Shown here piece after piece: positions 11,694 to 59,565 of a stretch of DNA of 64,000 bases. The notes beneath the pieces were generated by a model. That model did not search any database. It saw only the letters and a program-made list of their open reading frames with translations, and was not told the DNA's origin. The stretch covers positions 16,612-80,611 of the forward strand of contig JBKOWV010000059.1 in assembly GCA_046724585.1 (NCBI GenBank), in the 5' to 3' direction. The DNA comes from Verrucomicrobiota bacterium (lineage in GTDB: Bacteria > Verrucomicrobiota > Verrucomicrobiia > Chthoniobacterales > UBA10450). Position 1 is the stretch's first letter. Each line of letters starts with the position of its first letter. The translations under genes were made by a program, and so were the position numbers.

Positions 11694-11789
11694 CGCTTAC
11701 AGCAGCGCTACAGGTTGTGTCGGATTACCGTTTGCACGCTGGAATATCCGTCCAGTTTTAGAAATTTGCGCAGGCGCGTGGCTACACAG

Positions 11790-14345
11790 TTACGACCAGG
11801 TGATGAGACGCAGTTCGTGCGCTTGCATGAGATGAGAGTGAGTGGGAACAACGCGCACGCTGAAGCCGTAGGTGCCGCTTTCAGAGGCGGGGACTGATCC
11901 CTGGTAAATGTAATTGCCGTCCCCATCTGCCTGGCTGCTCTGATTCAGGACGGTCGCCGCGGGATTGCGGATGTCGCCGTTATCTACTTCGCCGTGGTAC
12001 GCCTCCACGCGCACGTGTTTTGGATCGACTGCGCCGAGATGAACTCGCGCGCTGATCTGTAATGATTCACCAACCGAAATGTTTTTCCGATCTTTGTTCC
12101 CGATCTGGACATCGAAAATCTGCACTTGCGGCCAATCTTTCCGCATCTGCGTTTTCCAATGGCTCAGTTGCGTCGCGGCGCCGCAACCGTCGCGAGAAAA
12201 ATCTTCGTACGATCGCGCGGCGGGAATGTAGAGCCGCTCAGTATATTCCTTCACCATTCGCTGAGTGTTGAACACGGGCGTGACGCTTCGAATCGATTCA
12301 CGCATCAGTTGCAACCAGGCAAGGGGAAGTTTGCCGTCCGGCTTCGCGTAATAGAGCGGGATGATCTGGTTCTCGAGCAATTGATAAAGACTGCTCGCGT
12401 CCACTTCGTTTTGAAATTCGCTTGTGCCATTATCGATCTCGGCGCCAATCGCCCAGCCGTTGTTGCCGTGGTAGCCCTCACGCCACCAGCCGTCGAGCAC
12501 GCTCAGATTGATCCCGCCATTGGGCGCCGATTTCATCCCGCTTGTCCCACTTGCCTCCAGTGGCCGGAGTGGATGATTCAACCAGAGATCGACTCCCTGC
12601 ACGAGACGGCGCGCGATGTAGCTATCGTAGTCTTCCAGGAAAACGATGCGATTTTCGACTCCCGGTTCGCGGCTAAATTTGTAAACTTCCTGAATGAGCG
12701 CCTTGCCAGCTTCGTCACGCGGATGCGCTTTGCCTGCGAAAATAAATTGCACGGGTCGCGTTGTGTCATTGAGCAATCGCTTCAGCCGTTCCTTGTCGCT
12801 AAACAAGAGCGTGGCCCGTTTGTAAGTGGCGAAACGGCGCGCGAAACCGACGGTCAAAATTTCCGGGTCGAGAATCCGATTTGCCCTGCGAATGGCTTCC
12901 GGCGATTCTCCCAGGCGCTCGCGCCGCCGCCGCTCCCACTCGCGGACAAATCCGATGAGACGCAATTTGAGGTTTTGATGCGTCTCCCAAAGTTGGGCAT
13001 CCGGAATATCGATAACTCCGCGCCAGAAATCGGGTTCGGTAAGATGCTCCTCCCATGCACCGAGATGCTTGTTATAAAGCGCCGAAAACTCGGGCGCCAT
13101 CCATGTTTTAGTGTGAACACCGTTGGTAATGCTGGTGATCGGGACCTCGTGCACCGGCACGCCTGTCCAGACATCTTTCCAAAGCAATCGAGTAACTTCG
13201 CCGTGCAATTTGCTTACGCCGTTGGCGTGCCGGCTCAAGCGCAACGCAAGAATGGTCATGCTGAACGGGTCGTTTGGATTGACGCGCGTCTGGCCGAATG
13301 AGAACAACTCGTCGAACGGAATGTCGAGTTCCCTGGCAAACGTGCCGAAATATTTTTTCATCATCTCGCGCGAGAATGAATCGTTGCCAGCAGGTACCGG
13401 CGTGTGAGTGGTGAAGACATTGGCCGCCGCCACGACTTGGAGGGCGGAATAGAAGTCGAGCTTCTTCTGGATGATGTTGAGGCGAATGCGTTCGAGCGCG
13501 AGAAACGCTGAGTGCCCTTCATTCATGTGAAAGACGTCAGGCTCGATGCCGAGCGCGTTAAGCGCTTTCACTCCGCCGATCCCCAGCATGATTTCCTGAC
13601 GCATCCGCATCTCCAGATCGCCGCCATAAAGCTCAGCGGTGAGCAATCGGTCCTCAGCGCTGTTTTCCGGAGTGTCTGTATCGAGAAGATAAACCTTGAT
13701 CCGGCCCACACGTAGCTCCCAAAGCTTCGCGAAAACTTCGCGGTCCAGGATTGGCACCGAAATCAGCAGATTGGCGTCGCCCCGACGGACTTCGCTGATC
13801 GGCAGGTGATAAAAGTTTTGATTCAGACTGATCGCTTCCTGGACGCCCTCCTTGTCGATCTGCTGTCTGAAATAACCATGGCGGTAGAGCAGCCCAATCC
13901 CGACAAAGTTTAGATCAAGATCGCTCGCCGATTTGCAATGATCGCTGGCCAGGATGCCGAGGCCGCCGGAATAATTCGGGATCGATTCGTGAAAGCCAAA
14001 TTCGGCGGAAAAATAAGCGATGGGGTTTTTGATTGCACTGCCGGCTCCGGTTTTTCCATAAGTGTCCTTGCGACCCAAATATTTCTCGAACGCCTCGAAA
14101 ACCTGCTTTAGCTCGCGGAGAAAAGTTTTGTCCTGTGAAAGTTCTTCCAGCCGCGATTGGCGGGACAGTTGGAGCATACGGACCGGGTTGTGATTGGTCC
14201 GATTCCAGAGCTCGGGGTCGAGGTGTCGGAAAAGGCGGCGCGCAGAGGGCTCCCACGTCCACCAAAGGTTGAAACTCAACTCGCGCAGCGGCTCGACCGT
14301 CGCCGGCAAGGTCGGAGTAACGTTGTAAGTTTGAAAAGTCGGCAT
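11790..14345 (-). CDS. glgP: alpha-glucan (glycogen/maltodextrin) phosphorylase, GT35
   Basis: 851 aa. EASGTSGMKSAPNGG pyridoxal-phosphate lysine motif and LSVLDGWW. Confidence 0.93.
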   Translation of the reverse strand: MPTFQTYNVTPTLPATVEPLRELSFNLWWTWEPSARRLFRHLDPELWNRTNHNPVRMLQLSRQSRLEELSQDKTFLRELKQVFEAFEKYLGRKDTYGKTGAGSAIKNPIAYFSAEFGFHESIPNYSGGLGILASDHCKSASDLDLNFVGIGLLYRHGYFRQQIDKEGVQEAISLNQNFYHLPISEVRRGDANLLISVPILDREVFAKLWELRVGRIKVYLLDTDTPENSAEDRLLTAELYGGDLEMRMRQEIMLGIGGVKALNALGIEPDVFHMNEGHSAFLALERIRLNIIQKKLDFYSALQVVAAANVFTTHTPVPAGNDSFSREMMKKYFGTFARELDIPFDELFSFGQTRVNPNDPFSMTILALRLSRHANGVSKLHGEVTRLLWKDVWTGVPVHEVPITSITNGVHTKTWMAPEFSALYNKHLGAWEEHLTEPDFWRGVIDIPDAQLWETHQNLKLRLIGFVREWERRRRERLGESPEAIRRANRILDPEILTVGFARRFATYKRATLLFSDKERLKRLLNDTTRPVQFIFAGKAHPRDEAGKALIQEVYKFSREPGVENRIVFLEDYDSYIARRLVQGVDLWLNHPLRPLEASGTSGMKSAPNGGINLSVLDGWWREGYHGNNGWAIGAEIDNGTSEFQNEVDASSLYQLLENQIIPLYYAKPDGKLPLAWLQLMRESIRSVTPVFNTQRMVKEYTERLYIPAARSYEDFSRDGCGAATQLSHWKTQMRKDWPQVQIFDVQIGNKDRKNISVGESLQISARVHLGAVDPKHVRVEAYHGEVDNGDIRNPAATVLNQSSQADGDGNYIYQGSVPASESGTYGFSVRVVPTHSHLMQAHELRLITWS

Positions 14346-48403: not shown

Positions 48404-49033
48404 ATGTCACAACCCCAGACAGAATCCGGCTCAGATCGACGCACCCAAATTCTCGATGCGGCCCTAGTTTGCTTCGCCAAGCGAGGCTTCCACCAAGCCA
48501 GCATGCACGACATCAGTGCCGAGGCGGGTATCAGCGTCGGCCTGATTTATCGCTATTTCGAGAACAAGGACGCGGTCATTTCCGCGATGGCCGACCGGCA
48601 CAAGAAAGAAATCCACGAAGTACTGGAGCGCGCGAAACAGGCCCCAACGCTGCTTGAGTCGCTTGAGATTTTGTTCACCGCGCATTGTTGCGAAGACGCG
48701 CCGCAAGTTGTCTCAGCCTTCGTTGTCGATCTTTATGCCGAAGCCTCGCGCAATCAGCACGTGGCCGATTTGGTCCGCGACGTTTTGCAAACGGCCATGG
48801 ACGGCGTGACGGTTTTGATTGCGCGTGCACCTGAAGCGCAAACCGCGGTACATGGTCTCAGTCCAACGGAGCTGGCAGAACTAATTTACGCCGTGGCACG
48901 GGGGATGTTGATGCTGGACGTCCTGCGCCCACAGCAGATGACAGCCGCGGAACGGCGGGAGCGACAACTGGAAGTGACCCGCAGGCTCTGGCGCTTGTTG
49001 TTCAAACCGGAGGCAGAAGTTGCTTATGCATGA
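48404..49033 (+). CDS. TetR/AcrR-family transcriptional regulator
   Basis: N-terminal HTH RTQILDAALVCFAKRGFHQASMHDISAEAGISVGLIYRYF. Confidence 0.9.
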   Translation: MSQPQTESGSDRRTQILDAALVCFAKRGFHQASMHDISAEAGISVGLIYRYFENKDAVISAMADRHKKEIHEVLERAKQAPTLLESLEILFTAHCCEDAPQVVSAFVVDLYAEASRNQHVADLVRDVLQTAMDGVTVLIARAPEAQTAVHGLSPTELAELIYAVARGMLMLDVLRPQQMTAAERRERQLEVTRRLWRLLFKPEAEVAYA

Positions 49034-50192
49034 TATTGCGAAGCCGGTCAAAACACAGATGAAATCGAAGCTCAGAACGATGGGCGTAGCGATTGGCGCC
49101 TTGATCGCTCTTATCATTGTCATTGTCAGTATCAAAGGTCTGCAAATCGGCAAGATGACGTCCACGCCGGCGATGATGCCGCCGACAACGGTATCGAGCG
49201 CAACTGTGAAAGAAGAAGATTGGGCGCCGGTGCTTTCCGCTGTCGGTTCGATCTCGGCCGTGCAAGGCGCGGTCGTTTCCAGTGAGCTTGCCGGAGTCGT
49301 CAGTCAAATCGCATTTGAAAACGGTGGCACGGCGAAGAAAGGCGATTTGTTGGTCCAACTGGACGCGTCGGCCGAAGAGGCGCTTTTGCGATCGGCAGAA
49401 GCTGAAGCCGAGCTGGCCCGACAGGACTTGGAACGAACTCGCGGCCTTGCCTCACAAAAGGTGGTTTCGAAGGCTGAGCTCGACGCCGCGCAATCGAAAT
49501 TCAATAGGCTGAATGCAGTTGTCGATCAGATGCGCTCCAATATTCGCAAGAAGACGATTATCGCGCCATTTGATGGCCAACTCGGGATTCGCCAGGTAAA
49601 CGTTGGGCAAATGATCAACGCAGGCCAACAAGTGGTGCCGCTCACTTCACTTGACCCGGTCTTCGCCGACTTCGCTTTGCCGCAGCAACATCTTGGTCAG
49701 TTAAAGCCGGGTCTGGAGGTGCACATAACGACGGACGCGCTTCCCGGCCGTGTGTTCAGCGGAAAGCTGACCGCGATTAATTCGATGGTCGATTCGAGCA
49801 CGCGCAACATCACGTTGCAGGCGACGTTGGAAAATCCCGATCACGCGTTGCGACCGGGAATGTTCGCGAAAGCGGAAGTCACATTGCCCGAAAAACACAA
49901 GACGCTGGTCGTTCCGGGATCCGCGATTTCATACGCGCCGTTCGGCGATTCGGTTTTTGTGATCGACAAGCAAAAGGACGAAAAGACCGGCAAGGAATCG
50001 CAAGTGATCCGACAACAATTTGTGCGGATCGGTGAAGCGCGCGGCGATTTCGTCGCGATTACGCAAGGATTGAAGGCCGGCGATATCGTGGTGAGCACGG
50101 GAGTTTTCAAACTGCGAAACGGAATGACGGTGACGGTCAATAACGATCTGGCGCCGAAGCCGCAGATAAATCCCAACCCAGTAGATTCATAA
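49026..50192 (+). CDS. efflux RND transporter periplasmic adaptor subunit
   Basis: Single N-terminal TM, coiled-coil hairpin region and beta-barrel region (IIAPFDGQLGIRQVNVGQ). The ATG at 49026 overlaps the tetR stop. Confidence 0.88.
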   Translation: MHDIAKPVKTQMKSKLRTMGVAIGALIALIIVIVSIKGLQIGKMTSTPAMMPPTTVSSATVKEEDWAPVLSAVGSISAVQGAVVSSELAGVVSQIAFENGGTAKKGDLLVQLDASAEEALLRSAEAEAELARQDLERTRGLASQKVVSKAELDAAQSKFNRLNAVVDQMRSNIRKKTIIAPFDGQLGIRQVNVGQMINAGQQVVPLTSLDPVFADFALPQQHLGQLKPGLEVHITTDALPGRVFSGKLTAINSMVDSSTRNITLQATLENPDHALRPGMFAKAEVTLPEKHKTLVVPGSAISYAPFGDSVFVIDKQKDEKTGKESQVIRQQFVRIGEARGDFVAITQGLKAGDIVVSTGVFKLRNGMTVTVNNDLAPKPQINPNPVDS

Positions 50193-50207
50193 CAATCGGA
50201 GATCGAC

Positions 50208-53200
50208 ATGAAATCGTTCACTGACCTTTTCATCAAACGCCCGGTGCTGGCGCTGGTGGTCAGCTTTGTGATCCTCATCGCCGGTTTGCAGGCGATGAGA
50301 ACGATCAACGTGCGCCAATATCCACGCAGCGATATCGCGGCGATCACGGTGCAGACGGTTTACGTCGGCGCAGATGCCGAGCTCGTGAGGGGATTTATCA
50401 CGACGCCGCTTGAGCGCGCGATCGCAGCGGCCGATGGAATCGATTACATCCAATCCCAAAGCAAACAGGGCGAATCACTGATCACGGCGCGGTTGAAATT
50501 GAATTACGACGCGAACAAGGCGCTCTCGGATATCAGCTCGAAAGTGGACGCGATCCGGCGCGATTTGCCGCCGGACGCGGAGATTCCGGTCATCAGCATT
50601 GAGGCGGCCGATTCCCAATTTGCTTCGGCTTATCTCAGTTTCACTTCCGACATTCTTCAGCCTAACGAAGTAACCGATTATCTCGTGCGACTCGTGCAGC
50701 CGCGTCTCACGGCGGTCGGTGGCGTGCAGAAAGCGGACATTCTCGGAGGACGCACGTTTGCCATGCGTATCTGGATGAAACCGGACCGAATGGCGGCTTT
50801 GAATATCAGCCCCGCTCAAGTGCGCACGATGCTGGCGCGAAATAATTTTCTCTCCGCCGTCGGTAACACGAAAGGCTCGCTGCTGCAGGTCAATCTCACC
50901 GCGAACACCGATCTGCACACAGTGGACGATTTCAAAAAGCTGGTCATTCGCCAGGAGAAAGGAAACCTCGTCAGGCTGAGCGACATCGCGGACGTGGAGC
51001 TGGGCGCTGAAGACTACAACGCCGAAGTGCGGTTCTCCGGTCAAAAGGCGGTCTTCATGGGCATTTGGGTTTTGCCAAACGCGAACTCGGTGGACGTGAT
51101 CAAGCGTGTCCGTGTGGAGATGGAGGAAATTCAAAAGGAACTGCCAGCCGGCATGAAAGGTGAAATCGCTTACGACGCCACAGCTTACATCAACGACGCG
51201 ATACACGAAGTCGTAAAAACTTTGATCGACACGTTGCTCATTGTGATGGTCGTGATCTTTTTGTTCCTCGGCTCCTTCCGCTCGGTGCTGGTGCCGGTCG
51301 TCGCGATTCCAATTTCGCTGATCGGCGCGTTGTTTCTCATGCAGCTGTTCGGGTTCAGCCTCAACTTGCTGACGCTGCTGGCGATTGTGCTTTCCGTCGG
51401 ATTGGTGGTCGATGATGCGATCGTCGTTGTCGAAAATGTCGAGCGACATTTGCGCCAAGGCATGTCACGGATGAATGCCGCGCTCGTCGGTGCACGAGAA
51501 TTGATCGGGCCGATCATCGCGATGACGATCACGCTGGCCGCCGTTTACACGCCGATCGCGATGCAAGGTGGGTTGACCGGCGCGTTGTTTCGCGAATTCG
51601 CTCTCACGCTCGCTGGCGCGGTTTTCATTTCAGGCGTCGTCGCACTGACGCTGTCGCCGATGATGTCGGCAAATCTTTTGCGCGCCGGCCACGTTGACAA
51701 AGGATTCAGCGGCCTGGTTAATCGCACGTTCGACCGTTTCCGGGATTGGTACGGAAGTCATCTCGATCGCACGCTGAATGCGCGGCCCGCAGTTTACATT
51801 TTCTGGGCCGGCATTTCGCTCCTCGCGCTCTTAATGTTCGCGGCGATTCCTAAAATGGCCTCAAAGGAATTAGCGCCGACGGAAGATCAGGGTGTGATTT
51901 TTGGAATTATTACAGCGCCGGCGAACGCGACCATCGACGATACGATCCGTTACGCGGATGCTGCCGGAACAGTCTTCCAAAACATTCCCGACACAAGATT
52001 TACATTTCAGCTTACATTTCCAGACAACGGATTTGGCGGAATGGTTTTGAAACCGTGGGGTGTTCGCAAAACGCCGACCAAGGCCTACCTGCCCCAAGTT
52101 CAAGCCCAACTCGGTGCGATTCCGGGGATCCAGATGTTTCCGATCATGCCTTCAGCGCTTCCCGGAGGGGATAATTTTCCGGTCAGCTTTGTGATCACAT
52201 CGACCGCCGACCAGGAACGCATTCTCGAATTCGCGAAGCAAATTTTCGGGAAAGCGATGCAGGCGCATATTTTCCAATTCGGCGATATCGATACGAAGAT
52301 CGACCAGCCGCAATCGGCGATCGTTTTCGATCACGACAAAGTCGCGGCGCTCGGCCTCGACATGCAGCAAGTCGGCGCCGATCTCTCGGCCAGTATTGGC
52401 GGGAATTACGTCAATCGATTCAACATCGAAGGACGCAGTTACAAAGTGATTCCGCAAATCAAGCGCGTCGATCGGTTGAACCCGGAGCAGTTGGAAAAGA
52501 TTTACGTGAGCGGGCCGAACAATCAGCTCATCCCGTTGAGCACGGTCGCTTCGATTAAACCCAAAACCGTTGCGCGTTCGCTCAATCGGATGCAACAACT
52601 CAACGCGGTCACCATCAGCGGGGTGCCCGCCGTTTCGCTCGATGCCGCTCTGAAATTTTTGGAGAACGAGGCGCGTAACATTCTTCCGAAAGGTTACGTC
52701 CTCGATTATACGGGCGAGTCGCGCCAGTTGCGCACCGAAGGCAGCAAATTTCTCGGCGTGTTTTTGCTATCGCTCGTGCTGATCTTTCTCGTCCTGGCGG
52801 CGCAGTTCAACAGCTTCCGCGATCCGTTCATTATTCTGTTGGGTTCGGTTCCGCTCGCCATGTTCGGCGCGGGTCTATTCATGTTTTTGAAGATGCCGTT
52901 CGGCGAATTCTTCACGGATAAGTGGACGACTTCGTTCAACATCTACTCACAAGTTGGTCTCGTCACGCTCGTCGGTCTCGTTTCGAAAAATGGAATCCTG
53001 ATTGTTCAATTTGCGAACGAGCTGCAGCGGCAGGGTTCGACCAAGCTGGCGGCGGTCGCGCAAGCCGCACGCATTCGTTTGCGTCCAATCATGATGACCA
53101 GCGTTGCAACTGTGGCCGGTCACTTTCCACTCACGCTCGTGACCGGCGCCGGCGCTGCCGCGCGAAACTCGATCGGTCTCGTGCTCGTCGGCGGAATGAC

Positions 53201-53387
53201 GATCGGAACGATTTTCACTCTGTTCATTGTTCCGTCGCTTTACATGCTCATCGCAAAGGAACATCACGAGAAGTCTCTGATGGAACCGGATTTGGAGGAT
53301 GTCACCGAAGATGTCGATCTTACGCCGGAATATGCACCCGCGCTCGCCGGACCGGATGGGAACGGCAACGGCTGGAAGCAAGGGTGA
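50208..53387 (+). CDS. efflux RND transporter permease (AcrB/HAE1-like)
   Basis: 1059 aa. MKSFTDLFIKRPVLALVVSFVILIAGL start and 12-TM architecture with two large loops. LSVGLVVDDAIVVVEN motif. Confidence 0.95.
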   Translation: MKSFTDLFIKRPVLALVVSFVILIAGLQAMRTINVRQYPRSDIAAITVQTVYVGADAELVRGFITTPLERAIAAADGIDYIQSQSKQGESLITARLKLNYDANKALSDISSKVDAIRRDLPPDAEIPVISIEAADSQFASAYLSFTSDILQPNEVTDYLVRLVQPRLTAVGGVQKADILGGRTFAMRIWMKPDRMAALNISPAQVRTMLARNNFLSAVGNTKGSLLQVNLTANTDLHTVDDFKKLVIRQEKGNLVRLSDIADVELGAEDYNAEVRFSGQKAVFMGIWVLPNANSVDVIKRVRVEMEEIQKELPAGMKGEIAYDATAYINDAIHEVVKTLIDTLLIVMVVIFLFLGSFRSVLVPVVAIPISLIGALFLMQLFGFSLNLLTLLAIVLSVGLVVDDAIVVVENVERHLRQGMSRMNAALVGARELIGPIIAMTITLAAVYTPIAMQGGLTGALFREFALTLAGAVFISGVVALTLSPMMSANLLRAGHVDKGFSGLVNRTFDRFRDWYGSHLDRTLNARPAVYIFWAGISLLALLMFAAIPKMASKELAPTEDQGVIFGIITAPANATIDDTIRYADAAGTVFQNIPDTRFTFQLTFPDNGFGGMVLKPWGVRKTPTKAYLPQVQAQLGAIPGIQMFPIMPSALPGGDNFPVSFVITSTADQERILEFAKQIFGKAMQAHIFQFGDIDTKIDQPQSAIVFDHDKVAALGLDMQQVGADLSASIGGNYVNRFNIEGRSYKVIPQIKRVDRLNPEQLEKIYVSGPNNQLIPLSTVASIKPKTVARSLNRMQQLNAVTISGVPAVSLDAALKFLENEARNILPKGYVLDYTGESRQLRTEGSKFLGVFLLSLVLIFLVLAAQFNSFRDPFIILLGSVPLAMFGAGLFMFLKMPFGEFFTDKWTTSFNIYSQVGLVTLVGLVSKNGILIVQFANELQRQGSTKLAAVAQAARIRLRPIMMTSVATVAGHFPLTLVTGAGAAARNSIGLVLVGGMTIGTIFTLFIVPSLYMLIAKEHHEKSLMEPDLEDVTEDVDLTPEYAPALAGPDGNGNGWKQG

Positions 53388-53480
53388 GCAGGCGGTGTAG
53401 AGGCGGCTGTGCCTGGCACGCCGAAATAGAACGAAGGCGGGTCAGCCGCTTGGGCATTTCGATCTGACCAACAAGCAAAA

Positions 53481-53520
53481 AGCCCCGGTGAGTTTCCCCA
53501 CCGAGGCTTTTGCTTTCTTG
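53481..53520. terminator. bidirectional intrinsic terminator
   Basis: AAAAAGCCCCGGTG-agtttccc-CACCGAGGCTTTTGCTTTCTT. Stem has 9 of 10 bp paired, with an A-run 5' and a T-run 3'. Lies between the RND stop and the stop of the 92-aa ORF. Confidence 0.7.
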
Positions 53521-53530
53521 TTGTAACTCG

Positions 53531-53809
53531 CTATCTGCCGCCGGCCGGCGGTCCGGCTGTCCGGAATTCGGCAAACTCGGTGGAGTTGCTTATCTTCGTG
53601 ACAACCCAGGGCTCTGGTCCAAGCGTAGCTGACGGCTGCTCTATGATGCCTCGGCCGACTGGCATTGGCCCAAAGGCGATCGAGTGACCAGGCTTTGCCA
53701 CAGTAATGAAGTTTTGCCCCCTGTTTTGGCAGAGGAAAAACCCTTCTTCATTCTGGAGCAAGCTTGCCAGGTCCAGGCCGCTGACTGGCACATTGATTTG
53801 GAGTTTCAT
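53531..53809 (-). CDS. hypothetical protein (92 aa), no recognisable motif
   Basis: Only ORF in this interval. AAGGGA lies about 10 nt upstream of the ATG. Divergent from the LuxR gene. No signal peptide. Confidence 0.5.
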   Translation of the reverse strand: MKLQINVPVSGLDLASLLQNEEGFFLCQNRGQNFITVAKPGHSIAFGPMPVGRGIIEQPSATLGPEPWVVTKISNSTEFAEFRTAGPPAGGR

Positions 53810-53912
53810 TTGATATATTCCCTTTCTTTTTTAGCGTTGAGGTAAAATTTCGCGCACTGCTTGATGATCGCCAGGTAACTTAGGTTGCCTTTTTCATTTC
53901 CCGATTGTTGAG

Positions 53913-53924
53913 CATTCCGGAATG
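53913..53924. promoter_or_regulatory. 12-bp perfect palindrome in divergent promoter region
   Basis: CATTCCGGAATG, about 65 nt upstream of the LuxR-family gene in an AT-rich 180-bp spacer. Confidence 0.3.
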
Positions 53925-53988
53925 AGCGCAGCCCAAGGCTGGGACAAAGGAACCGCGGCTGCGCGACGATGAGGCGCGGGGCAGGCAA

Positions 53989-55128
53989 ATGAAGCGGACC
54001 TCCAGGGTTGGCATGAAACGCGAGGCGGTGATTGATCCGTCACTGGAAAAGACTCTGCTCAGCCTTCACGCAGCCATGAACATTGGTTCGTTCTGGAAAG
54101 CCATCCAGCAGTTGCTCGCCGCCGCGATCCCAAATCGCATGATCGGCCTCATGCTTCAGCCGAATCCAATTTTGCCAATGATCGCGAAATGGACATTGCC
54201 CATGCCCGACGGGTTTTTTACCACAGAGCCACTCAAGAGTTATATCGCCGGGCAACCGCCTCAGAAGCTCGTCCGGATTAGCGACCTCTTTCCAAATCGA
54301 ACCAGCCTGATCAAATCGACCTTTTATCGCCGATACATGGCGCCGCAAAAATGTGCCCATGGCGTTGGCCTTCTTTTCCGGAGAGGACAGAGACTCATTT
54401 GTGTGATCGCAATCATGCGCACGGCAACACAGGGCGATCTGTCACCGACGGAGACGAAGTTGCTCCAGCAGCTTTACCCGCAGTTCCTGACCGCCCTTCG
54501 CCGGCTCAGGTGGCTCGAGCGTGAACACTCGGTGCGGATGGACTTTGAAGAATTCCTGAGCCGGCTGCCAATGCCGACGATCCTCCTGCGATGGAACTTA
54601 AAACCGATTTATCAAAACCGGGCCGCGCGCGACTTCTGCGCAGTATGGGAAAAAGGGCCTGAGCAGGCGCAACTGATGAACGCGACCTCTCCGATTCCTT
54701 CCGAGATTTTGGATCGATGCCGTCTGCTCAAACAACAATGGGCACAGGCGCAACGCCCCATTGCCCCGCAAGCAGGTTTTAAAGAAGAGCGGGTGCATCA
54801 TCCACGGTCGCCGCATTTGCGAGCAACGCTCCATTTAAAACAACTCGGTTCAGCCGGGGTGGCGCGCCCGCATTTCCTTATCGAATGCGAAGATTTGCGC
54901 TCTTCTGCTGCCGCGCGTACCGGCCCGGCGAGCTCCCGTTTGCCCCATCTCGTCCGACTCACCAGGCGCGAACAGGAAGTTGCGCGACTTGTCTGTGAGG
55001 GGCGAAGTAACCAGGAGATCTCCGATGAAGCCGGCTTGAGTCTGGCGATGGTGAAAAAGCACCTCCACGCGATTTTTCGCAAGCTCGAAGTTCCCAGTCG
55101 CAGCCGGCTCATTGCGCTGCTGCGATGA
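53989..55128 (+). CDS. LuxR-family transcriptional regulator (solo) with unassigned ~300-aa N-terminal region
   Basis: C-terminal HTH LTRREQEVARLVCEGRSNQEISDEAGLSLAMVKKHLHAIFRKLEV. No receiver or autoinducer-binding motif is recognisable upstream. Confidence 0.85.
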   Translation: MKRTSRVGMKREAVIDPSLEKTLLSLHAAMNIGSFWKAIQQLLAAAIPNRMIGLMLQPNPILPMIAKWTLPMPDGFFTTEPLKSYIAGQPPQKLVRISDLFPNRTSLIKSTFYRRYMAPQKCAHGVGLLFRRGQRLICVIAIMRTATQGDLSPTETKLLQQLYPQFLTALRRLRWLEREHSVRMDFEEFLSRLPMPTILLRWNLKPIYQNRAARDFCAVWEKGPEQAQLMNATSPIPSEILDRCRLLKQQWAQAQRPIAPQAGFKEERVHHPRSPHLRATLHLKQLGSAGVARPHFLIECEDLRSSAAARTGPASSRLPHLVRLTRREQEVARLVCEGRSNQEISDEAGLSLAMVKKHLHAIFRKLEVPSRSRLIALLR

Positions 55129-55257
55129 GTGGCGCGGCGCGACATTTGCCGCTCGTACCTTGCTATAAAATCGATATCTGCAATCTGACTTCTGAAATGT
55201 CGCCGCGCAGTTGTCCGGCTAGGTGGCACAAATTGTCGGCCTCACGAGTACAGGCTC

Positions 55258-55286
55258 AGCCGCGGCTCAGTAGCCTGCGGCTTTTA
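55258..55286 (+). terminator. candidate intrinsic terminator for the LuxR-family gene
   Basis: AGCCGCGGCT-cagt-AGCCtGCGGCT followed by TTTTA. Overlaps the 3' end of the convergent 119-aa ORF. Confidence 0.45.
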
Positions 55287-55626
55287 GCTTGCGGACTTTC
55301 GGCTTAGTCCTGTCGACTACCACACGGTTGACCACGGGGGTTTCGCCCGTGCGGTCATAATAGATATGAACGCGAGTGCCGGGTTTGATCAGGTGCTCGT
55401 CGATCTGTCTGCCGGCTTTGTTCACGTAACGAACTGTGTCGTCGAGCACGTAGCTAAAAGTATCTTCTGCGCTTTCAGAGCCGACTACGATTATTTCGCC
55501 AGGCTCAAACGTGGTGACAGTGCCGGAGTCACGTGTCGGTTGCTCCTTGCTCGTCGTACTGGTTTGCGCAAACGCCAAAGGCGCGATCAGCGCACAGGCG
55601 AGAGCGTTGACTGTTTGCTTTAGCAT
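55267..55626 (-). CDS. small secreted protein, function unknown
   Basis: 119 aa with signal peptide MLKQTVNALACALIAPLAFAQ. GGGGAGA lies about 7 nt upstream of the ATG. Confidence 0.6.
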   Translation of the reverse strand: MLKQTVNALACALIAPLAFAQTSTTSKEQPTRDSGTVTTFEPGEIIVVGSESAEDTFSYVLDDTVRYVNKAGRQIDEHLIKPGTRVHIYYDRTGETPVVNRVVVDRTKPKVRKLKAAGY

Positions 55627-55970
55627 GAATATCTCCCCGTTTAATGTTGATGTTTTACCCCAAAAGTTTCGTGGTTAAGGATTCGGCGAACGGTCATGCC
55701 GTCGCCCGTTCCACACTTTGACCGGCCCGCTACGGCGCTGTTCGAACTAATTTAGCATTCGCGCGACGGAGGGAGGCTACAGACTTGTCAACGTGACCGG
55801 TCGATGAGCAGCCAAACGCCGACTGTCGAGGCGCTTGTCACACCGAGACTGGTGGCCAAAACATGGCCTTAGCCCGGCAAACGCCGCCCGCAATTGAGCG
55901 TTGCAGGATTTGCGACACGAAATGGGGGTTTGGATAGCATTACGTTGCCGACTCTGTGAAAACGCGGGCT

Positions 55971-56063
55971 GTCACCTGAGAAACCGCACTCCAAGATGTC
56001 GATCGTACGCCGGAATTTGCGCCAGACCTCGCGCCCGCCGGCAACGGCCGGAAGCAAGGATGA
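55971..56063 (+). pseudogene. relic copy of the RND permease 3' end
   Basis: 55995-56063 translates DVDRTPEFAPDLAPAGNGRKQG-stop, compared with the pump C-terminus DVDLTPEYAPALAGPDGNGNGWKQG-stop (53310-53387). An in-frame TGA at 55977 lies just upstream. Confidence 0.7.
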
Positions 56064-56090
56064 GCGATTCTCAGATCGCCGCAATTTGAT

Positions 56091-57032
56091 TCAACCAGTC
56101 GATCTACGCGGCAGTTCCACTTCCTTTTGCTCGATTTGGACAGCGTGCTTGGCCGGTTTGATCGGTGATCCGAATTCGGTGGCGTAAACCTGGGTGAACT
56201 CGGCCCCGAAAAGCAAAATTTGCGAAGAATAGTAAATCCAGAGCAGCAATGTGATCAGCGAACTGGCTGCACCATAAGCCGATGCCGCGGCGCCACTACC
56301 GAGATATAAGCCGAGTGCCCATTTGCCGATCAGGAAGAAAACCGACGTCATCGCAGCTCCAACCCACATGTCCCGCCATCGGGTTCTCACGTCCGGCAGG
56401 ATTTTAAAGATCATCGCAAAGAGCGTAGTGATCACCGCGAAATCAAAAATCAGATAAACGCTTACGGCGATGGTCAGACCACCGGGCATTGCTTGCTGGA
56501 TATAATGGCTAAACCCTTTTAGCAGGGCCTCGACCGCGAGCGATACGAGCAGCAGGAAACAAATGCCGCCAACCATGGCAAAAGATAAAAAACGGGTGCG
56601 CAAAAATCCCCAGATACCCAGTCCCGGCTTGGCTTTCACCCCCCACACTGTATTGAGCGCATCCTGCAACTGACCGAATACTCCGCTGGCCCCGAAAAGG
56701 GCGAGCGCGATTCCAATGATTGTTGCGAGCGTACTTTTCCCCGGTTGCGACGCTTTCTGCGCAATGTTTTGCACTACTTCCAGCGCGCTTTTATCGAGAA
56801 AATAACTCATCTGCTCGGTGAGTTTGCTCCATGCTCCGGCCGGATCGTCCCGGAAGATCACGCCAACGATTGCGAGTAAGACGAGGACGAGCGGCGCGAG
56901 GGAAAAGACCGTGTAATACGCCAGCGCTGCGCCGAGTTGCGGCGCTTTGTCCTGCAACCACTCCTGGGTTGTTAATTTTAACAGTTTGAAAGCCGTGCCA
57001 AAAACCGATTTGCGCGCCGAACCGTTCCTCAT
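56091..57032 (-). CDS. YihY/BrkB-family membrane protein
   Basis: 313 aa. GAALAYYTVFSLAPL N-terminal motif, six hydrophobic segments, QILLFGAEF near the C-terminus. Confidence 0.85.
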   Translation of the reverse strand: MRNGSARKSVFGTAFKLLKLTTQEWLQDKAPQLGAALAYYTVFSLAPLVLVLLAIVGVIFRDDPAGAWSKLTEQMSYFLDKSALEVVQNIAQKASQPGKSTLATIIGIALALFGASGVFGQLQDALNTVWGVKAKPGLGIWGFLRTRFLSFAMVGGICFLLLVSLAVEALLKGFSHYIQQAMPGGLTIAVSVYLIFDFAVITTLFAMIFKILPDVRTRWRDMWVGAAMTSVFFLIGKWALGLYLGSGAAASAYGAASSLITLLLWIYYSSQILLFGAEFTQVYATEFGSPIKPAKHAVQIEQKEVELPRRSTG

Positions 57033-57253
57033 AAATGCGTCTTGTTCTCTGAAGGAATCGCATCAGGCGGCAATCAAAGATGCACTATGTTGGGCTCTGT
57101 AAACGGATTGGCCGATTCGCAATCTCGCTTCAAATTGAATCAGGAAGCCAAGAAGCCAGGAATCTCAGAGACTTTGTTTCGATTTTAAACGTCCGCTTCA
57201 GCGCGATCACCGTTTGCAATCGGCAATCGAAAATCTAAAATCGAAATGTCGTT

Positions 57254-57325
57254 GTTCCCGTAGTTCAACGGATAGAACGGAGGTTTCCTAAACCTTAAAT
57301 GTGGGTTCGATTCCCGCCGGGAACG
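57254..57325 (+). tRNA. tRNA-Arg (anticodon CCT)
   Basis: Hand-folded cloverleaf. Acceptor GTTCCCG/CGGGAAC. D arm GTTC-AACGGATA-GAAC. Anticodon arm GAGGT-TTCCTAA-ACCTT with T33 and A37. 4-nt variable loop. T arm GTGGG-TTCGATT-CCCGC. Discriminator G. CCA not encoded. Confidence 0.9.
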
Positions 57326-57443
57326 GTTTGTGCATTTTGCGCATCTGAGACCCCGGAGGACGTGTGTGCGTCTTTGCTTCGATTGATTCGCTTTCTCCCG
57401 AAAGCTCACCCTTCGGGCTTCGTCTATGTCGCTCGACTCCCGT

Positions 57444-57466
57444 CGGCTCCATTCCCGCCGGGAACG
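57444..57466 (+). repeat. direct repeat of the tRNA-Arg 3' end (att-like)
   Basis: ATTCCCGCCGGGAACG (57451-57466) is identical to 57310-57325. With flanks, 20 of 23 nt match tRNA positions 57303-57325. Confidence 0.8.
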
Positions 57467-57573
57467 CTTATCGACCAGTTTGTTCAAAGTTCTCTTGTTG
57501 GTCTGATCTGGGGAAGTTTGTTCGAGAACCCAGGCAAATCGGGCCGAAAATATCTTGCCTGCTATATTGGCAA

Positions 57574-58455
57574 ATGGAATCAACCTCGATCCGTTTATCG
57601 GAACTAAAGGTTGGGGTCATAATCAACACATCAAGCGGGGGGTGCGATTCGGAATCTGAGGAGAAGATGCGCGCTAAGCTCAAAGGCGCGGGCGTTGTCG
57701 AGCCCAGGATATGGTGCGGCGGGGCAGACAAAATGGAGCTGTCGTTTGCCGAAGCGGCGCGGGAGAAGCTGGAGGTGTTTATCGTACTTGGAGGTGACGG
57801 CACCATCCGGACCGCTGCACAAGCATGCGCTGGAGGGGGGCGGTATCTTATCCCGCTTCCCGGGGGGACAATGAATATGCTTCCTCAGGCATTGTATGGA
57901 GACGTGTCGTGGGAAGACGCGCTCAAAAATACGCTTGTTGCTCCATCTGTGAAAGTGCTTTCCGGAGGTCGGGTCGCAGACAAACAGTTTTTTGTCGCGG
58001 CGGTTGTGGGAGCGCCTGCGCTTTGGGCAGAAGCCCGTGAATCTATACGCGACGGAAATATTGTTGATGCTGTCGAGAAGGGGAGCGTCGCTTTCCAAAA
58101 TATGTTTGAAACGAAGGTGCAGTATCTCATTTCAGACAGAATAAAGGGTGAAGCTGAAGCCATAACTCTTATCTGCCCCTTAGTATCAGAAGAAATGTCC
58201 GATTCCGAGCAAGCGCTTGAAGCTGCTGTCATTGACGTGGGAAGCGCCGCGGAAGTGATCGGTCTTGCCACTGCGGCCGCGTTTGGCAAATGGCGCGATA
58301 ACAGAAATATAGTCCTCACCAAAACACAGCGAGTAGGTGTGCAATCAAGCAAAAACATCCCTGCGACCCTCGATGGAGAAAGAGTCAATTTAGGCAGCAG
58401 CGCGGAGATCGATTTTGTCTCTAAAGCGGTCAATGTCATCGTGCCTGCCAAGTAG
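57574..58455 (+). CDS. diacylglycerol/lipid kinase family protein (DAGK_cat, YegS/LCB5-like)
   Basis: VGVIINTSSGG N-terminus and the VLGGDGTI nucleotide-binding motif. The ORF-track start at 57364 runs through the att-like repeat, so the ATG at 57574 is preferred. Confidence 0.75.
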   Translation: MESTSIRLSELKVGVIINTSSGGCDSESEEKMRAKLKGAGVVEPRIWCGGADKMELSFAEAAREKLEVFIVLGGDGTIRTAAQACAGGGRYLIPLPGGTMNMLPQALYGDVSWEDALKNTLVAPSVKVLSGGRVADKQFFVAAVVGAPALWAEARESIRDGNIVDAVEKGSVAFQNMFETKVQYLISDRIKGEAEAITLICPLVSEEMSDSEQALEAAVIDVGSAAEVIGLATAAAFGKWRDNRNIVLTKTQRVGVQSSKNIPATLDGERVNLGSSAEIDFVSKAVNVIVPAK

Positions 58456-58680: not shown

Positions 58681-59145
58681 TCAGCGGCCGAGCAAGCGGG
58701 GATCGAAGTCGTAATCGATCGGCGGATGAATGCGGATGCGTTTGAAGTCTGGATGCTCGGGATTTAAGAGAAAGTTTGTGTCGGCCGGACTGATCGCACT
58801 CGGTAAGGCCAGAACCGCGGAGCGCCGTTCTTGAATCCACCGGTCGCCGATGTCTTTCGTTTCTGCCGGTGGCGGCGTGACACGCCAGTTCAGCGGCAAT
58901 TTCTTGAACGGGAAAGTTTCCGTGAGACCGTCTGGCCACTGCAAATGGAACGCTTTGTATTTTTCGTTTGGAGAAAACGGTTTGTTGTGAATGAAGACTT
59001 CGAGGGCGGCGGTCGATTGATGTTCACTAACGTAAATGACGCGCACGTTCCGCGAATTCCAGCGCCCGCCGTAACGCCATGAGCCTTCGCCGGAAAAAGC
59101 CATGGCCGCTTCGCTTTCCAGAATGATACGCCAACCCGAAGCCAT
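58681..59145 (-). CDS. RES-domain toxin (NAD+-targeting family)
   Basis: GEGSWRYGGRWNSRNVRVIYVSEHQSTAALEVFIH supplies the R...E...S signature. Lies 6 nt downstream of its antitoxin gene. Confidence 0.85.
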   Translation of the reverse strand: MASGWRIILESEAAMAFSGEGSWRYGGRWNSRNVRVIYVSEHQSTAALEVFIHNKPFSPNEKYKAFHLQWPDGLTETFPFKKLPLNWRVTPPPAETKDIGDRWIQERRSAVLALPSAISPADTNFLLNPEHPDFKRIRIHPPIDYDFDPRLLGR

Positions 59146-59151
59146 CGGGTC

Positions 59152-59565
59152 TTAGGAATAGACCCCGTACTTCATTCGACCCAATAAGTTCTCAACTTCG
59201 CGCGCGCCGATCTCTGTTTCTGCATAATCCAGCGGCACGGCGCCACCGAGACCATATTGCGGATGTTTCAGCCATGCCCGCGCCTTCTCGGTGTCGCCGA
59301 AAAGATCTGTGGCTTGGCGAAGCAGCCGCGAAAAGCGTATCACCTTATCCGATTCAGTCGGCGACAACCGTCCAGCCGCCTTGCGCCGCTGCAAAGTGGA
59401 TCGCGAGATGGCAAGCTTTGCTGCCAGTTGCTCAAAGGGCATGTCGATGCTGTCCTGCAAAACTTTCAGATCGGAAAAGGGCAATCCCTTCTGAATCCGA
59501 CGAATCAGTTCATGCGGATGCTTCGCTTTTGCGTGAACAGGCTTCTTCTCAATTGCCGTTTTCAT
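59152..59565 (-). CDS. Xre/MbcA/ParS-type antitoxin (DUF2384 C-terminal toxin-binding domain)
   Basis: HTH region (FEQLAAKLAISRSTLQRRKA) plus the C-terminal WLKHPQYGLGGAVPLDYAETEIGAREVENLLGRMKYGVYS. Confidence 0.85.
   Translation of the reverse strand: MKTAIEKKPVHAKAKHPHELIRRIQKGLPFSDLKVLQDSIDMPFEQLAAKLAISRSTLQRRKAAGRLSPTESDKVIRFSRLLRQATDLFGDTEKARAWLKHPQYGLGGAVPLDYAETEIGAREVENLLGRMKYGVYS

Follow-up and report, generated by a model that had tools for sequence, protein, structure and literature searches.

Here we describe the locus around a repeated 3' end of an efflux-pump gene in a 64,000-nucleotide (nt) stretch of DNA from a Verrucomicrobiota bacterium of the Chthoniobacterales (assembly GCA_046724585.1, contig JBKOWV010000059.1, positions 16,612–80,611), which is called the window throughout and by whose own numbering positions are given. 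The pump is a resistance-nodulation-division (RND) system encoded on the plus strand by three adjoining genes (48404–53387): a TetR gene (48404–49033; Pfam TetR_N), a membrane-fusion protein (MFP) gene (49020–50192; HlyD_D23 and HlyD_3) and the RND permease gene (50208–53387; ACR_tran, PF00873, E-value 4e-245). The permease, the periplasmic adaptor gene and the local TetR repressor together assign this TetR-MFP-RND operon to the AcrB/AcrD/AcrF kind of efflux operon; no outer-membrane factor gene was seen within it. The tail of the permease gene (53291–53387) has a dead counterpart, hereafter the relic, on the same strand at 55967–56063, and the initial annotation of this DNA had taken the two copies for the borders of an inserted three-gene cassette.

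The 2.6 kb between the copies begins with a hairpin terminator (53478–53511; 15-pair stem, eight GC pairs, T/A runs at the flanks), which the initial annotation had correctly placed between the pump and the next gene. There follow a small minus-strand gene whose product we read as cytoplasmic (orf92, 53531–53809), a divergent control region (53810–53988, aligned across 85 loci) and a plus-strand gene for a GerE/LuxR-type regulator (53989–55128; LuxR in the gene orders below). The spacer 3' of the regulator (55129–55201) ends in the 9-mer GAAATGTCG at the point where a tRNA would start. A second small minus-strand gene, for a putatively secreted protein with a signal-peptide-like N-terminal sequence (orf119, 55267–55626), is separated from the relic by a region whose last 184 nt (55783–55966) run from the orf119 upstream region to the relic. 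On the far side of the relic are a 27-nt spacer (56064–56090) with the hairpin GCGAT-TCTCAG-ATCGC, the convergent minus-strand gene yihY (56091–57032), which belongs to the YihY/BrkB membrane protein family since PF03631 spans the whole protein (E-value 3.1e-50, residues 27–285), a plus-strand promoter-like region (57213–57252, TTGCAA-16-TAAAAT) and a plus-strand tRNA-Arg(CCT) gene (57253–57326; ARAGORN, Rfam). Besides this tRNA, no Rfam family was found in 53380–57400, and base composition over 46–62 kb showed no anomaly or discontinuity.

Local alignment of 53308–53389 with 55993–56065 gave 63 identical columns of 82 with two gaps and a score of 72, against 15.7 ± 2.3 (maximum 28) in 500 shuffles, which confirms the earlier claim that the end of the RND gene recurs near yihY. 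No unrelated segment on either strand of the window scored above 32. Both copies open with an identical stretch of 12 nt at their left edge and end in TGA in the same frame. Within the window the repeat starts at 53308; when the second copy is aligned to the RND tails of relatives, its homology extends upstream to about 55967, and the relic is therefore about 97 nt long. Its reading ends in ...DVDRTPEFAPDLAP--AGNGRKQG*, and it is dead, as the initial annotation had stated: a TGA interrupts its frame at 55977, and 9 nt are deleted. The relic itself presumably does nothing.

Relatives were collected through the regulator: a protein search returned more than 1400 homologues, of which the top 120 clusters were 83–96% identical and nearly all from metagenome assemblies, and the approximately 90 loci obtained in this way are the basis of the synteny counts. 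Related loci and contigs are labelled with L and a number. In five Chthoniobacterales contigs of metagenome-assembled genomes (MAGs), L004, L007, L010, L014 and L028, the RND gene converges directly on yihY, which lies immediately downstream of the pump, and the orf92-LuxR pair is absent. The spacers between the two genes measure 28 to about 500 nt, and that of L010, at 28 nt, compares with the 27 nt that separate the relic stop from the yihY stop (56091–56093). The relic thus sits where the pump genes of the empty-site relatives end, which is good evidence that it is the stump of an RND-yihY junction and not random filler. Both the position of the copy at the former pump end and the existence of empty sites had been anticipated in the initial annotation, and both are borne out.

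The arrangement is not peculiar to one assembly. The MAG contig L001, which is independent, runs collinear with the window at near identity and carries the relic; a metagenome contig of about 84% identity, L141, has its own, more decayed relic in the same place (about 11783–11858); and a third sample, judged by gene order and gap length, shows the gene order of the window and, as there, a gap of 465 nt between yihY and orf119. These recurrences exclude an assembly artefact. Among the approximately 90 loci, a second tail copy occurs in the window/L001 and in L141 only. No relic was found in L168–172, which have the gene order of the window, and comparisons for a decayed tail in the LuxR-yihY spacers of eight loci with other gene orders gave scores no better than shuffles. 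It follows that the pump tail has no recurrent use as an attachment site, and the proposed likeness to tRNA genes as integration targets is not supported for it.

One way of leaving such a stump would be a second copy of the pump, produced by tandem or segmental duplication or imported from a sister strain as a homologous TetR-MFP-RND-yihY segment, which once stood downstream of orf119 and was later deleted except for its last 97 nt. The sharp left edge of the relic could mark the end point of a deletion, its clade-type tail differs from the resident tail, and whole pump genes have recently been imported at this locus by homologous recombination, as described below. However, examination of 55627–55995 in all frames and by sensitive blastn revealed no RND-derived coding sequence upstream of 55967, the only match of this region being to L141, up to 55869; the approximately 90 loci include no intermediate with a longer second copy; and the deletion needs one event more than a single illegitimate joint. 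We regard this explanation as improbable.

The explanation given in the initial annotation was that orf92, the regulator gene and orf119 had entered the 3' end of the pump gene as a cassette by site-specific integration, had replaced that end and had later lost their recombinase; on the evidence in this and the following paragraphs we consider it very unlikely. In its favour, a direct repeat of the gene end with a 12-nt identical edge does bracket the three genes, empty sites do exist, and there is a precedent in the cryptic prophage e14 of Escherichia coli, which lies in icd and is flanked by icd and the C-terminal pseudogene icdC (Hill et al. 1989, as described in PMC13626634). As at icd, the 3' end of a gene is present twice here, with the functional gene complete and a displaced C-terminal fragment beyond the intervening DNA. 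Unlike the window locus, e14 behaves as a unit, encodes a site-specific recombinase of its own, excises precisely and keeps to one site; the window locus has no recombinase and a mosaic interior that varies among strains, and its fragment is confined to one block lineage. Of the four features that define an integrative element, a repeat at both borders is the one present. Pfam, PHROGs and PADLOC gave no integrase, phage or plasmid signal between the tail copies, PHROGs and PADLOC yielding nothing beyond a helix-turn-helix (HTH); the absence of a recombinase from this interval, where GerE is the sole Pfam domain, had already been remarked on. The 2.6 kb as a whole, orf92 and orf119 had no match among 72,556 plasmids and 50,697 phages. 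Recurrent use of the site was not seen in the approximately 90 loci, as described above, and the three genes are not present or absent as a unit, since the orf92-LuxR pair is found in all informative loci and orf119 and yihY are variable and permuted.

The pair formed by orf92 and the regulator belongs to the pump. A divergent orf92-like gene was found in all 75 loci with at least 450 nt of sequence upstream of the regulator, and the TetR-MFP-RND operon lay upstream of the pair in 53 of the 55 loci with at least 1600 nt. This trio of pump, orf92 and regulator persists in the distant L175 and L178, in which the regulator is only about 60% identical to that of the window and orf92 is tandemly duplicated. 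Synteny that survives at such a regulator identity indicates that orf92 and the regulator are old, vertically kept companions of the pump, which speaks against their arrival with orf119 in a cassette.

Further variation was observed around orf92. Two tandem orf92 paralogues lie in L175 (6001–6611), L176, L177 and L178 (1–534), and the orf92 of distant relatives is about 75–78% identical to that of the window although the regulator is only about 60% identical. In L002 and L086 the place of orf92 is taken by a type of 42% identity, perhaps a diverged paralogue and not an allele. A gene for an Hsp20/alpha-crystallin protein was noted between the RND stop and orf92 in L002 (5161–5613), L108, L115, L140, L141, L156 and L168–172, at a place where the window has the terminator only; this gene is a further independently variable piece of the supposed insertion.

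On the other side of the regulator the picture is different. Among 83 loci, the first feature within 200 nt of the regulator stop is tRNA-Arg or its first 38 nt in 30, yihY in 10, orf119 followed by yihY in six (L141 and the five near-identical contigs L168–172) and other genes in 37. In nearly all loci examined orf119 and yihY are co-oriented neighbours, in either of two orders: regulator-orf119-yihY in the window, L141 and L168–172, and regulator-yihY-orf119, with orf119 on the far side of yihY, in L002, L086, L088, L103 and L165. Hence orf119 tracks yihY rather than the regulator, and the expectation that the three genes co-occur as a unit is contradicted. Two exceptions were noted: in L174 a homologue of orf119 lies near neither yihY nor the regulator, and one contig, for which gene calls only were compared, has a 121-amino-acid open reading frame (ORF) after the regulator and no yihY.

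The spacer 55129–55201 is homologous to the spacer between regulator and tRNA-Arg in L090, L106, L145, L154 and others, up to the base before the tRNA, and after 55201 the window switches to the 3' flank of orf119. Since the match to the tRNA-promoter spacer stops exactly at the tRNA start, the boundary between the regulator and orf119 is a recombination joint, separate from the joint at the relic and located at a former tRNA start, which again does not agree with a single self-contained cassette. Positions 57213–57252, which precede the real tRNA, are a second and diverged copy of 55160–55201, so that the block 55202–57252 is flanked by two copies of GAAATGTCG, the second (57244–57252) directly before the tRNA. 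In all arrangements the orf119 segment has a constant left boundary, CCCCGCCAG. What precedes this boundary varies: in the window it is the promoter-like spacer; in L141 and L168 the boundary follows 27 nt after the regulator stop and the promoter-like spacer is absent; in the yihY-orf119 order it is the tRNA upstream region plus approximately 13 tRNA-like nt with two to three mismatches.

In the relatives the tRNA-Arg(CCT) locus is an integration hot spot. In L090, L091, L097, L102, L148–152, L164 and others, tRNA-Arg(CCT), or its promoter and first approximately 38 nt, follows the regulator; variable islands come next, with more 5'-half fragments, and a complete tRNA comes last. What recurs is the 5' half as far as the anticodon loop and not the usual 3' end, and the left ends of the islands after ...GGTTTCCTAA are alike in L097, L102 and L164. 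A tyrosine integrase lies directly after the tRNA[1–34] piece in L082 and L087. The larger islands appear to regenerate the tRNA by supplying the promoter and 5' half instead of the usual 3' end. The likeness of the window region to tRNA-targeting islands consists in this hot spot with its partial tRNA copies, variable cargo and integrases. It differs from them in that the pump-tail repeat is not their attachment (att) site, in that the relatives repeat promoter and 5' half, and in that the window itself has one intact tRNA and a short echo of its 3' end at 57442–57469. The T-arm and acceptor portion of the tRNA (GTGGGTTCGATTCCCGCCGGGAACGGTT, 57301–57328) recurs there, 141 nt downstream, with 86% identity, and to judge from this likeness the echo looks like a leftover att site of an excised or decayed element that targeted the 3' end.

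This hot spot suggests a second route to the relic. An islet carrying orf119 at the 5' boundary of tRNA-Arg could have been mobilised by an island integrase; in a source genome with the order RND-yihY-tRNA, aberrant excision would have captured yihY together with the 97-nt stump, and re-integration where the regulator abuts the tRNA would have left the relic as hitch-hiking donor DNA. Such an explanation accounts for the co-orientation of yihY and orf119 in both orders, as a circular intermediate would give, for the constant left boundary of the orf119 segment, for the tRNA upstream region and the approximately 13 nt of tRNA 5' start at the junction of the yihY-orf119 order, for the GAAATGTCG copies and the two diverged tRNA-promoter copies around 55202–57252, and for the resemblance of the relic to the tail of another lineage. 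It is also in keeping with the roughly 30 of 83 loci that have tRNA-Arg or its 5' part near the regulator stop and with the integrases of L082 and L087. Against this, no integrase was found in the window or in the examined loci of either orf119/yihY order, L141 and L168 have no promoter-like spacer at the LuxR-orf119 joint, the 13-nt tRNA-like piece has two to three mismatches, and the required donor order RND-yihY-tRNA was not found among the loci; the empty-site outgroups that have RND next to yihY carry no tRNA-Arg nearby. We hold this route to be rather unlikely. The more general notion that orf119, with or without yihY, is a recombinase-less islet at the 5' boundary of tRNA-Arg(CCT), driven in trans by the integrases of the larger islands, and that aberrant excision captured the stump, is of low probability in our estimate; were it true, the capture would be the chromosomal counterpart of specialised transduction, here in uncultured Verrucomicrobia of soil.

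The source of the relic can be narrowed down from its sequence. The whole clade has in common an RND tail motif, ...EDVDLTPE[FYM]APALAPDGNGNGWK[QK][GA]*, and the present pump end of the window is therefore native; the claim that the insert had supplied a replacement end is thereby set aside, and with it a further element of the cassette explanation. The relic was compared with functional tails over approximately 99 aligned sites, for which the standard error is about 4.5%: identity is 83% to the tail of L141, 82% to that of L096, 81% to that of L002 and 69% to the window's own, against a median of 73% among functional tails within the clade. With the tails of L141, L096 and L002 it has the diagnostic GGAATTTGCGCCAG-CCTCGCGCC in common, the L141-type tail sequence being GGAATTTGCGCCAGCCCTCGCGCC. 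Its identity to the tails of the empty-site outgroups is 40–51%. 

Two comparisons bear on the age of the event. The relics of the window and L141 are 70% identical to each other, and the adjoining yihY genes 83–90%, which places the event shortly before the split of the window and L141 blocks. Moreover, a neutrally decaying fragment that is still 83% identical to one tail type must be younger than the association of orf92 and LuxR with the pump, and by a wide margin, as a cassette that brought all of them at once does not allow. The relative divergence led us to reject the idea that the relic arose at the base of the clade.

The neighbourhood of the relic has itself been reshuffled. In sliding-identity comparisons, the MFP and RND genes are closest to L086 (92–99% nt identity), the identity to L086 falls to 77% in the pump tail (53200–53500), orf92 matches only L148 and L161 (90–92%), the regulator is 84–92% identical to all relatives, and yihY is again closest to L086 (90–96%). 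The identity drop at 53200–53500 marks a recent recombination patch. For the pump genes (49300–53200) the 92–99% identity to L086 contrasts with about 84–93% for the flanking TetR, regulator and yihY genes; this jump indicates a recent homologous import of about 4 kb between strains with different downstream gene orders, L086 being closest in the pump genes and yet having the opposite order of yihY and orf119. In the RND tree the empty-site contigs L010 and L014 branch within the clade, and their YihY proteins are the most distant, a conflict that also points to recombination. For this reason the RND tree was rejected as a strain tree for polarising the arrangements.

Homologous exchange among strains is thus pervasive, which explains why the relic is unlike the resident tail and prevents a firm polarity of the rearrangements. 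The 2.6 kb between the tail copies are not a cassette but a mosaic, made up of three or more pieces that evolve independently.

On balance, and with confidence somewhat better than even, we favour the reading that the relic is the fossil of an RND-yihY junction, with a breakpoint about 97 nt inside the pump gene, whose stump and yihY were joined to orf119-bearing DNA. We infer the type of recombination and the order of events as follows. In a genome with an L141-type pump tail, well after the orf92-LuxR pair had been fixed beside the pump, recombination between closely related strains, either illegitimate or with homology on a single side, would have joined the stump and yihY to DNA carrying orf119, downstream of the resident orf92-regulator pair. 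Later homologous exchanges would have overwritten the pump genes, whose identity to L086 is now 97–99%, and swapped the orf92 allele, and in the window lineage a later exchange would have joined orf119 to a spacer of the kind that carries the tRNA promoter between regulator and tRNA-Arg.

The combination of one homologous and one illegitimate joint is described in PMC3240628 as an established route for inserting foreign DNA. Applied to the window locus, it would account for an insertion beside a conserved gene without a recombinase and for a breakpoint within the anchor region, and it agrees with the pervasive homologous exchange at this locus. A difference is that this homology-facilitated illegitimate recombination was shown experimentally in a few model bacteria, whereas here it is deduced from end products. 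The breakpoint approximately 97 nt inside the pump tail and the mosaic profile fit such a mechanism, whose illegitimate joint usually lies at microhomology; the joint in the window has diverged too far for microhomology to be judged.

Several points weigh against the fossil-junction reading. No sampled genome has an L141-type RND tail abutting yihY, so the parent arrangement is deduced. With approximately 99 sites, the difference between 83% and 73% amounts to about two standard errors, and the likeness of the relic to L141 could partly reflect ancestral states kept in a slowly evolving tail type. Recombination is frequent and gene trees are unreliable as a strain tree, so that the polarity of the rearrangements is not established. 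Finally, the GAAATGTCG repeat around 55202–57252 and the partial tRNAs at the junctions of relatives also fit recombinase-mediated movement.

The old part of the mosaic, the regulator with its control region and orf92, deserves attention in its own right. GerE is the only Pfam domain in the regulator (PF00196, residues 324–376, E-value 3e-13, above the cut-off) and was found in all of 63 diverse homologues, which places the protein in the LuxR/FixJ group. The N-terminal region, described earlier as unassignable, can now be assigned: an AlphaFold2 (AF2) model built from the 63 homologues, with a mean predicted local distance difference test (pLDDT) score of 90.5, predicts a GAF-like domain (17–144), a long helix (153–191), a PAS-like domain (197–302) and the GerE HTH (315–378). 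Foldseek matched the model to phytochrome PAS-GAF modules, EL222, VqmA, CviR, SdiA and RhlR, and a few relatives have weak Pfam matches to GAF, PAS or MmyB-LBD. As modelled, the protein is a one-component sensor regulator. Like the PAS/LOV/GAF-LuxR one-component regulators VqmA and EL222 and the autoinducer-binding receptors CviR, SdiA and RhlR it has a sensing domain fused to a C-terminal GerE HTH and no receiver domain; unlike them it would have two sensor domains, GAF-like and PAS-like, joined by a long helix. The autoinducer-binding domain PF03472 was not detected in the window regulator even at E-values up to 10 and gave weak matches in only two of the 63 relatives; the earlier label of a LuxR solo is therefore not supported in its quorum-sensing sense.

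The control region is strongly conserved and contains ATCGCCAGGTAACTTAGGTTGCCTTTTT and an imperfect inverted repeat, for which the consensus of 85 loci is GAGCGTTCC-(G)n-GGAATGAGCGC. The 12-bp perfect palindrome to which the initial annotation drew attention, CATTCCGGAATG, is indeed present at 53913–53924, but it is perfect only in the window and L001, that is, in two of the 85 loci, and the conserved element is the imperfect repeat. No further operator-like copies were found near other promoters of the window; one match within two mismatches falls inside the RES gene (59114–59125), and the total is at the chance level. Where this intergenic region is most conserved (column identity of 90% or more in 62 distinct sequences), a small hairpin followed by a T-run lies at 53873–53890 (AGGTAAC-TTAG-GTTGCCT TTTTC); it has no Rfam match and, judging from its structure, might serve the regulator transcript as a leader or attenuator.

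Both small genes are conserved families, with 398 homologues for orf92 and 1422 for orf119, so that the concern that they might be noise is removed. Searches of Pfam, NCBIfam, PHROGs, PADLOC and PDB returned no match for either of them, as had been stated for the lack of a recognisable motif in orf92, and their profile searches against PDB sequences gave nothing below an E-value of 0.08. The AF2 model of orf92 (pLDDT 55.6) was too poor for a fold search. The N-terminus of the orf119 product is read as a putative signal peptide with an A-F-A cleavage motif. 

With regard to function, the regulator may sense a small ligand through its GAF/PAS module and act on the conserved inverted repeat, controlling orf92 and itself from the shared promoter. 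The regulator-orf92 pair would then be functionally associated with the pump, and orf119 may be a secreted partner of YihY in the envelope.

As a scar, the relic is one more displaced gene end produced by recombination and matters little in itself; it does illustrate that what looks like a neat cassette flanked by direct repeats can have been pieced together in separate events. Of wider interest is that a GAF-PAS-LuxR regulator and orf92 are locked to a TetR-controlled RND operon across a large group of abundant uncultured soil Chthoniobacterales, and in the trio there is a concrete candidate for regulation by a ligand around a pump. PMC7343977 notes "Candidatus Udaeobacter" for multidrug tolerance; the window is not placed in that genus. 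At the adjacent tRNA-Arg locus, rearrangement among strains can be followed as in a natural laboratory, and attachment there may obey an unusual logic based on the 5' half.

The region to the right of the tRNA completes the locus. A lipid-kinase-like gene lies 3' of tRNA-Arg; the mechanically called ORF has 363 amino acids and includes the 57442–57469 echo of the tRNA end, and in L001 the gene is called with 262 amino acids, which corresponds to a start near 57667. Beyond it a RES-domain toxin gene (58681–59145) is paired with an Xre/ParS-type antitoxin gene (59152–59565), and in many relatives this RES-Xre pair (58681–59565) is conserved and anchors the variable region on its right.

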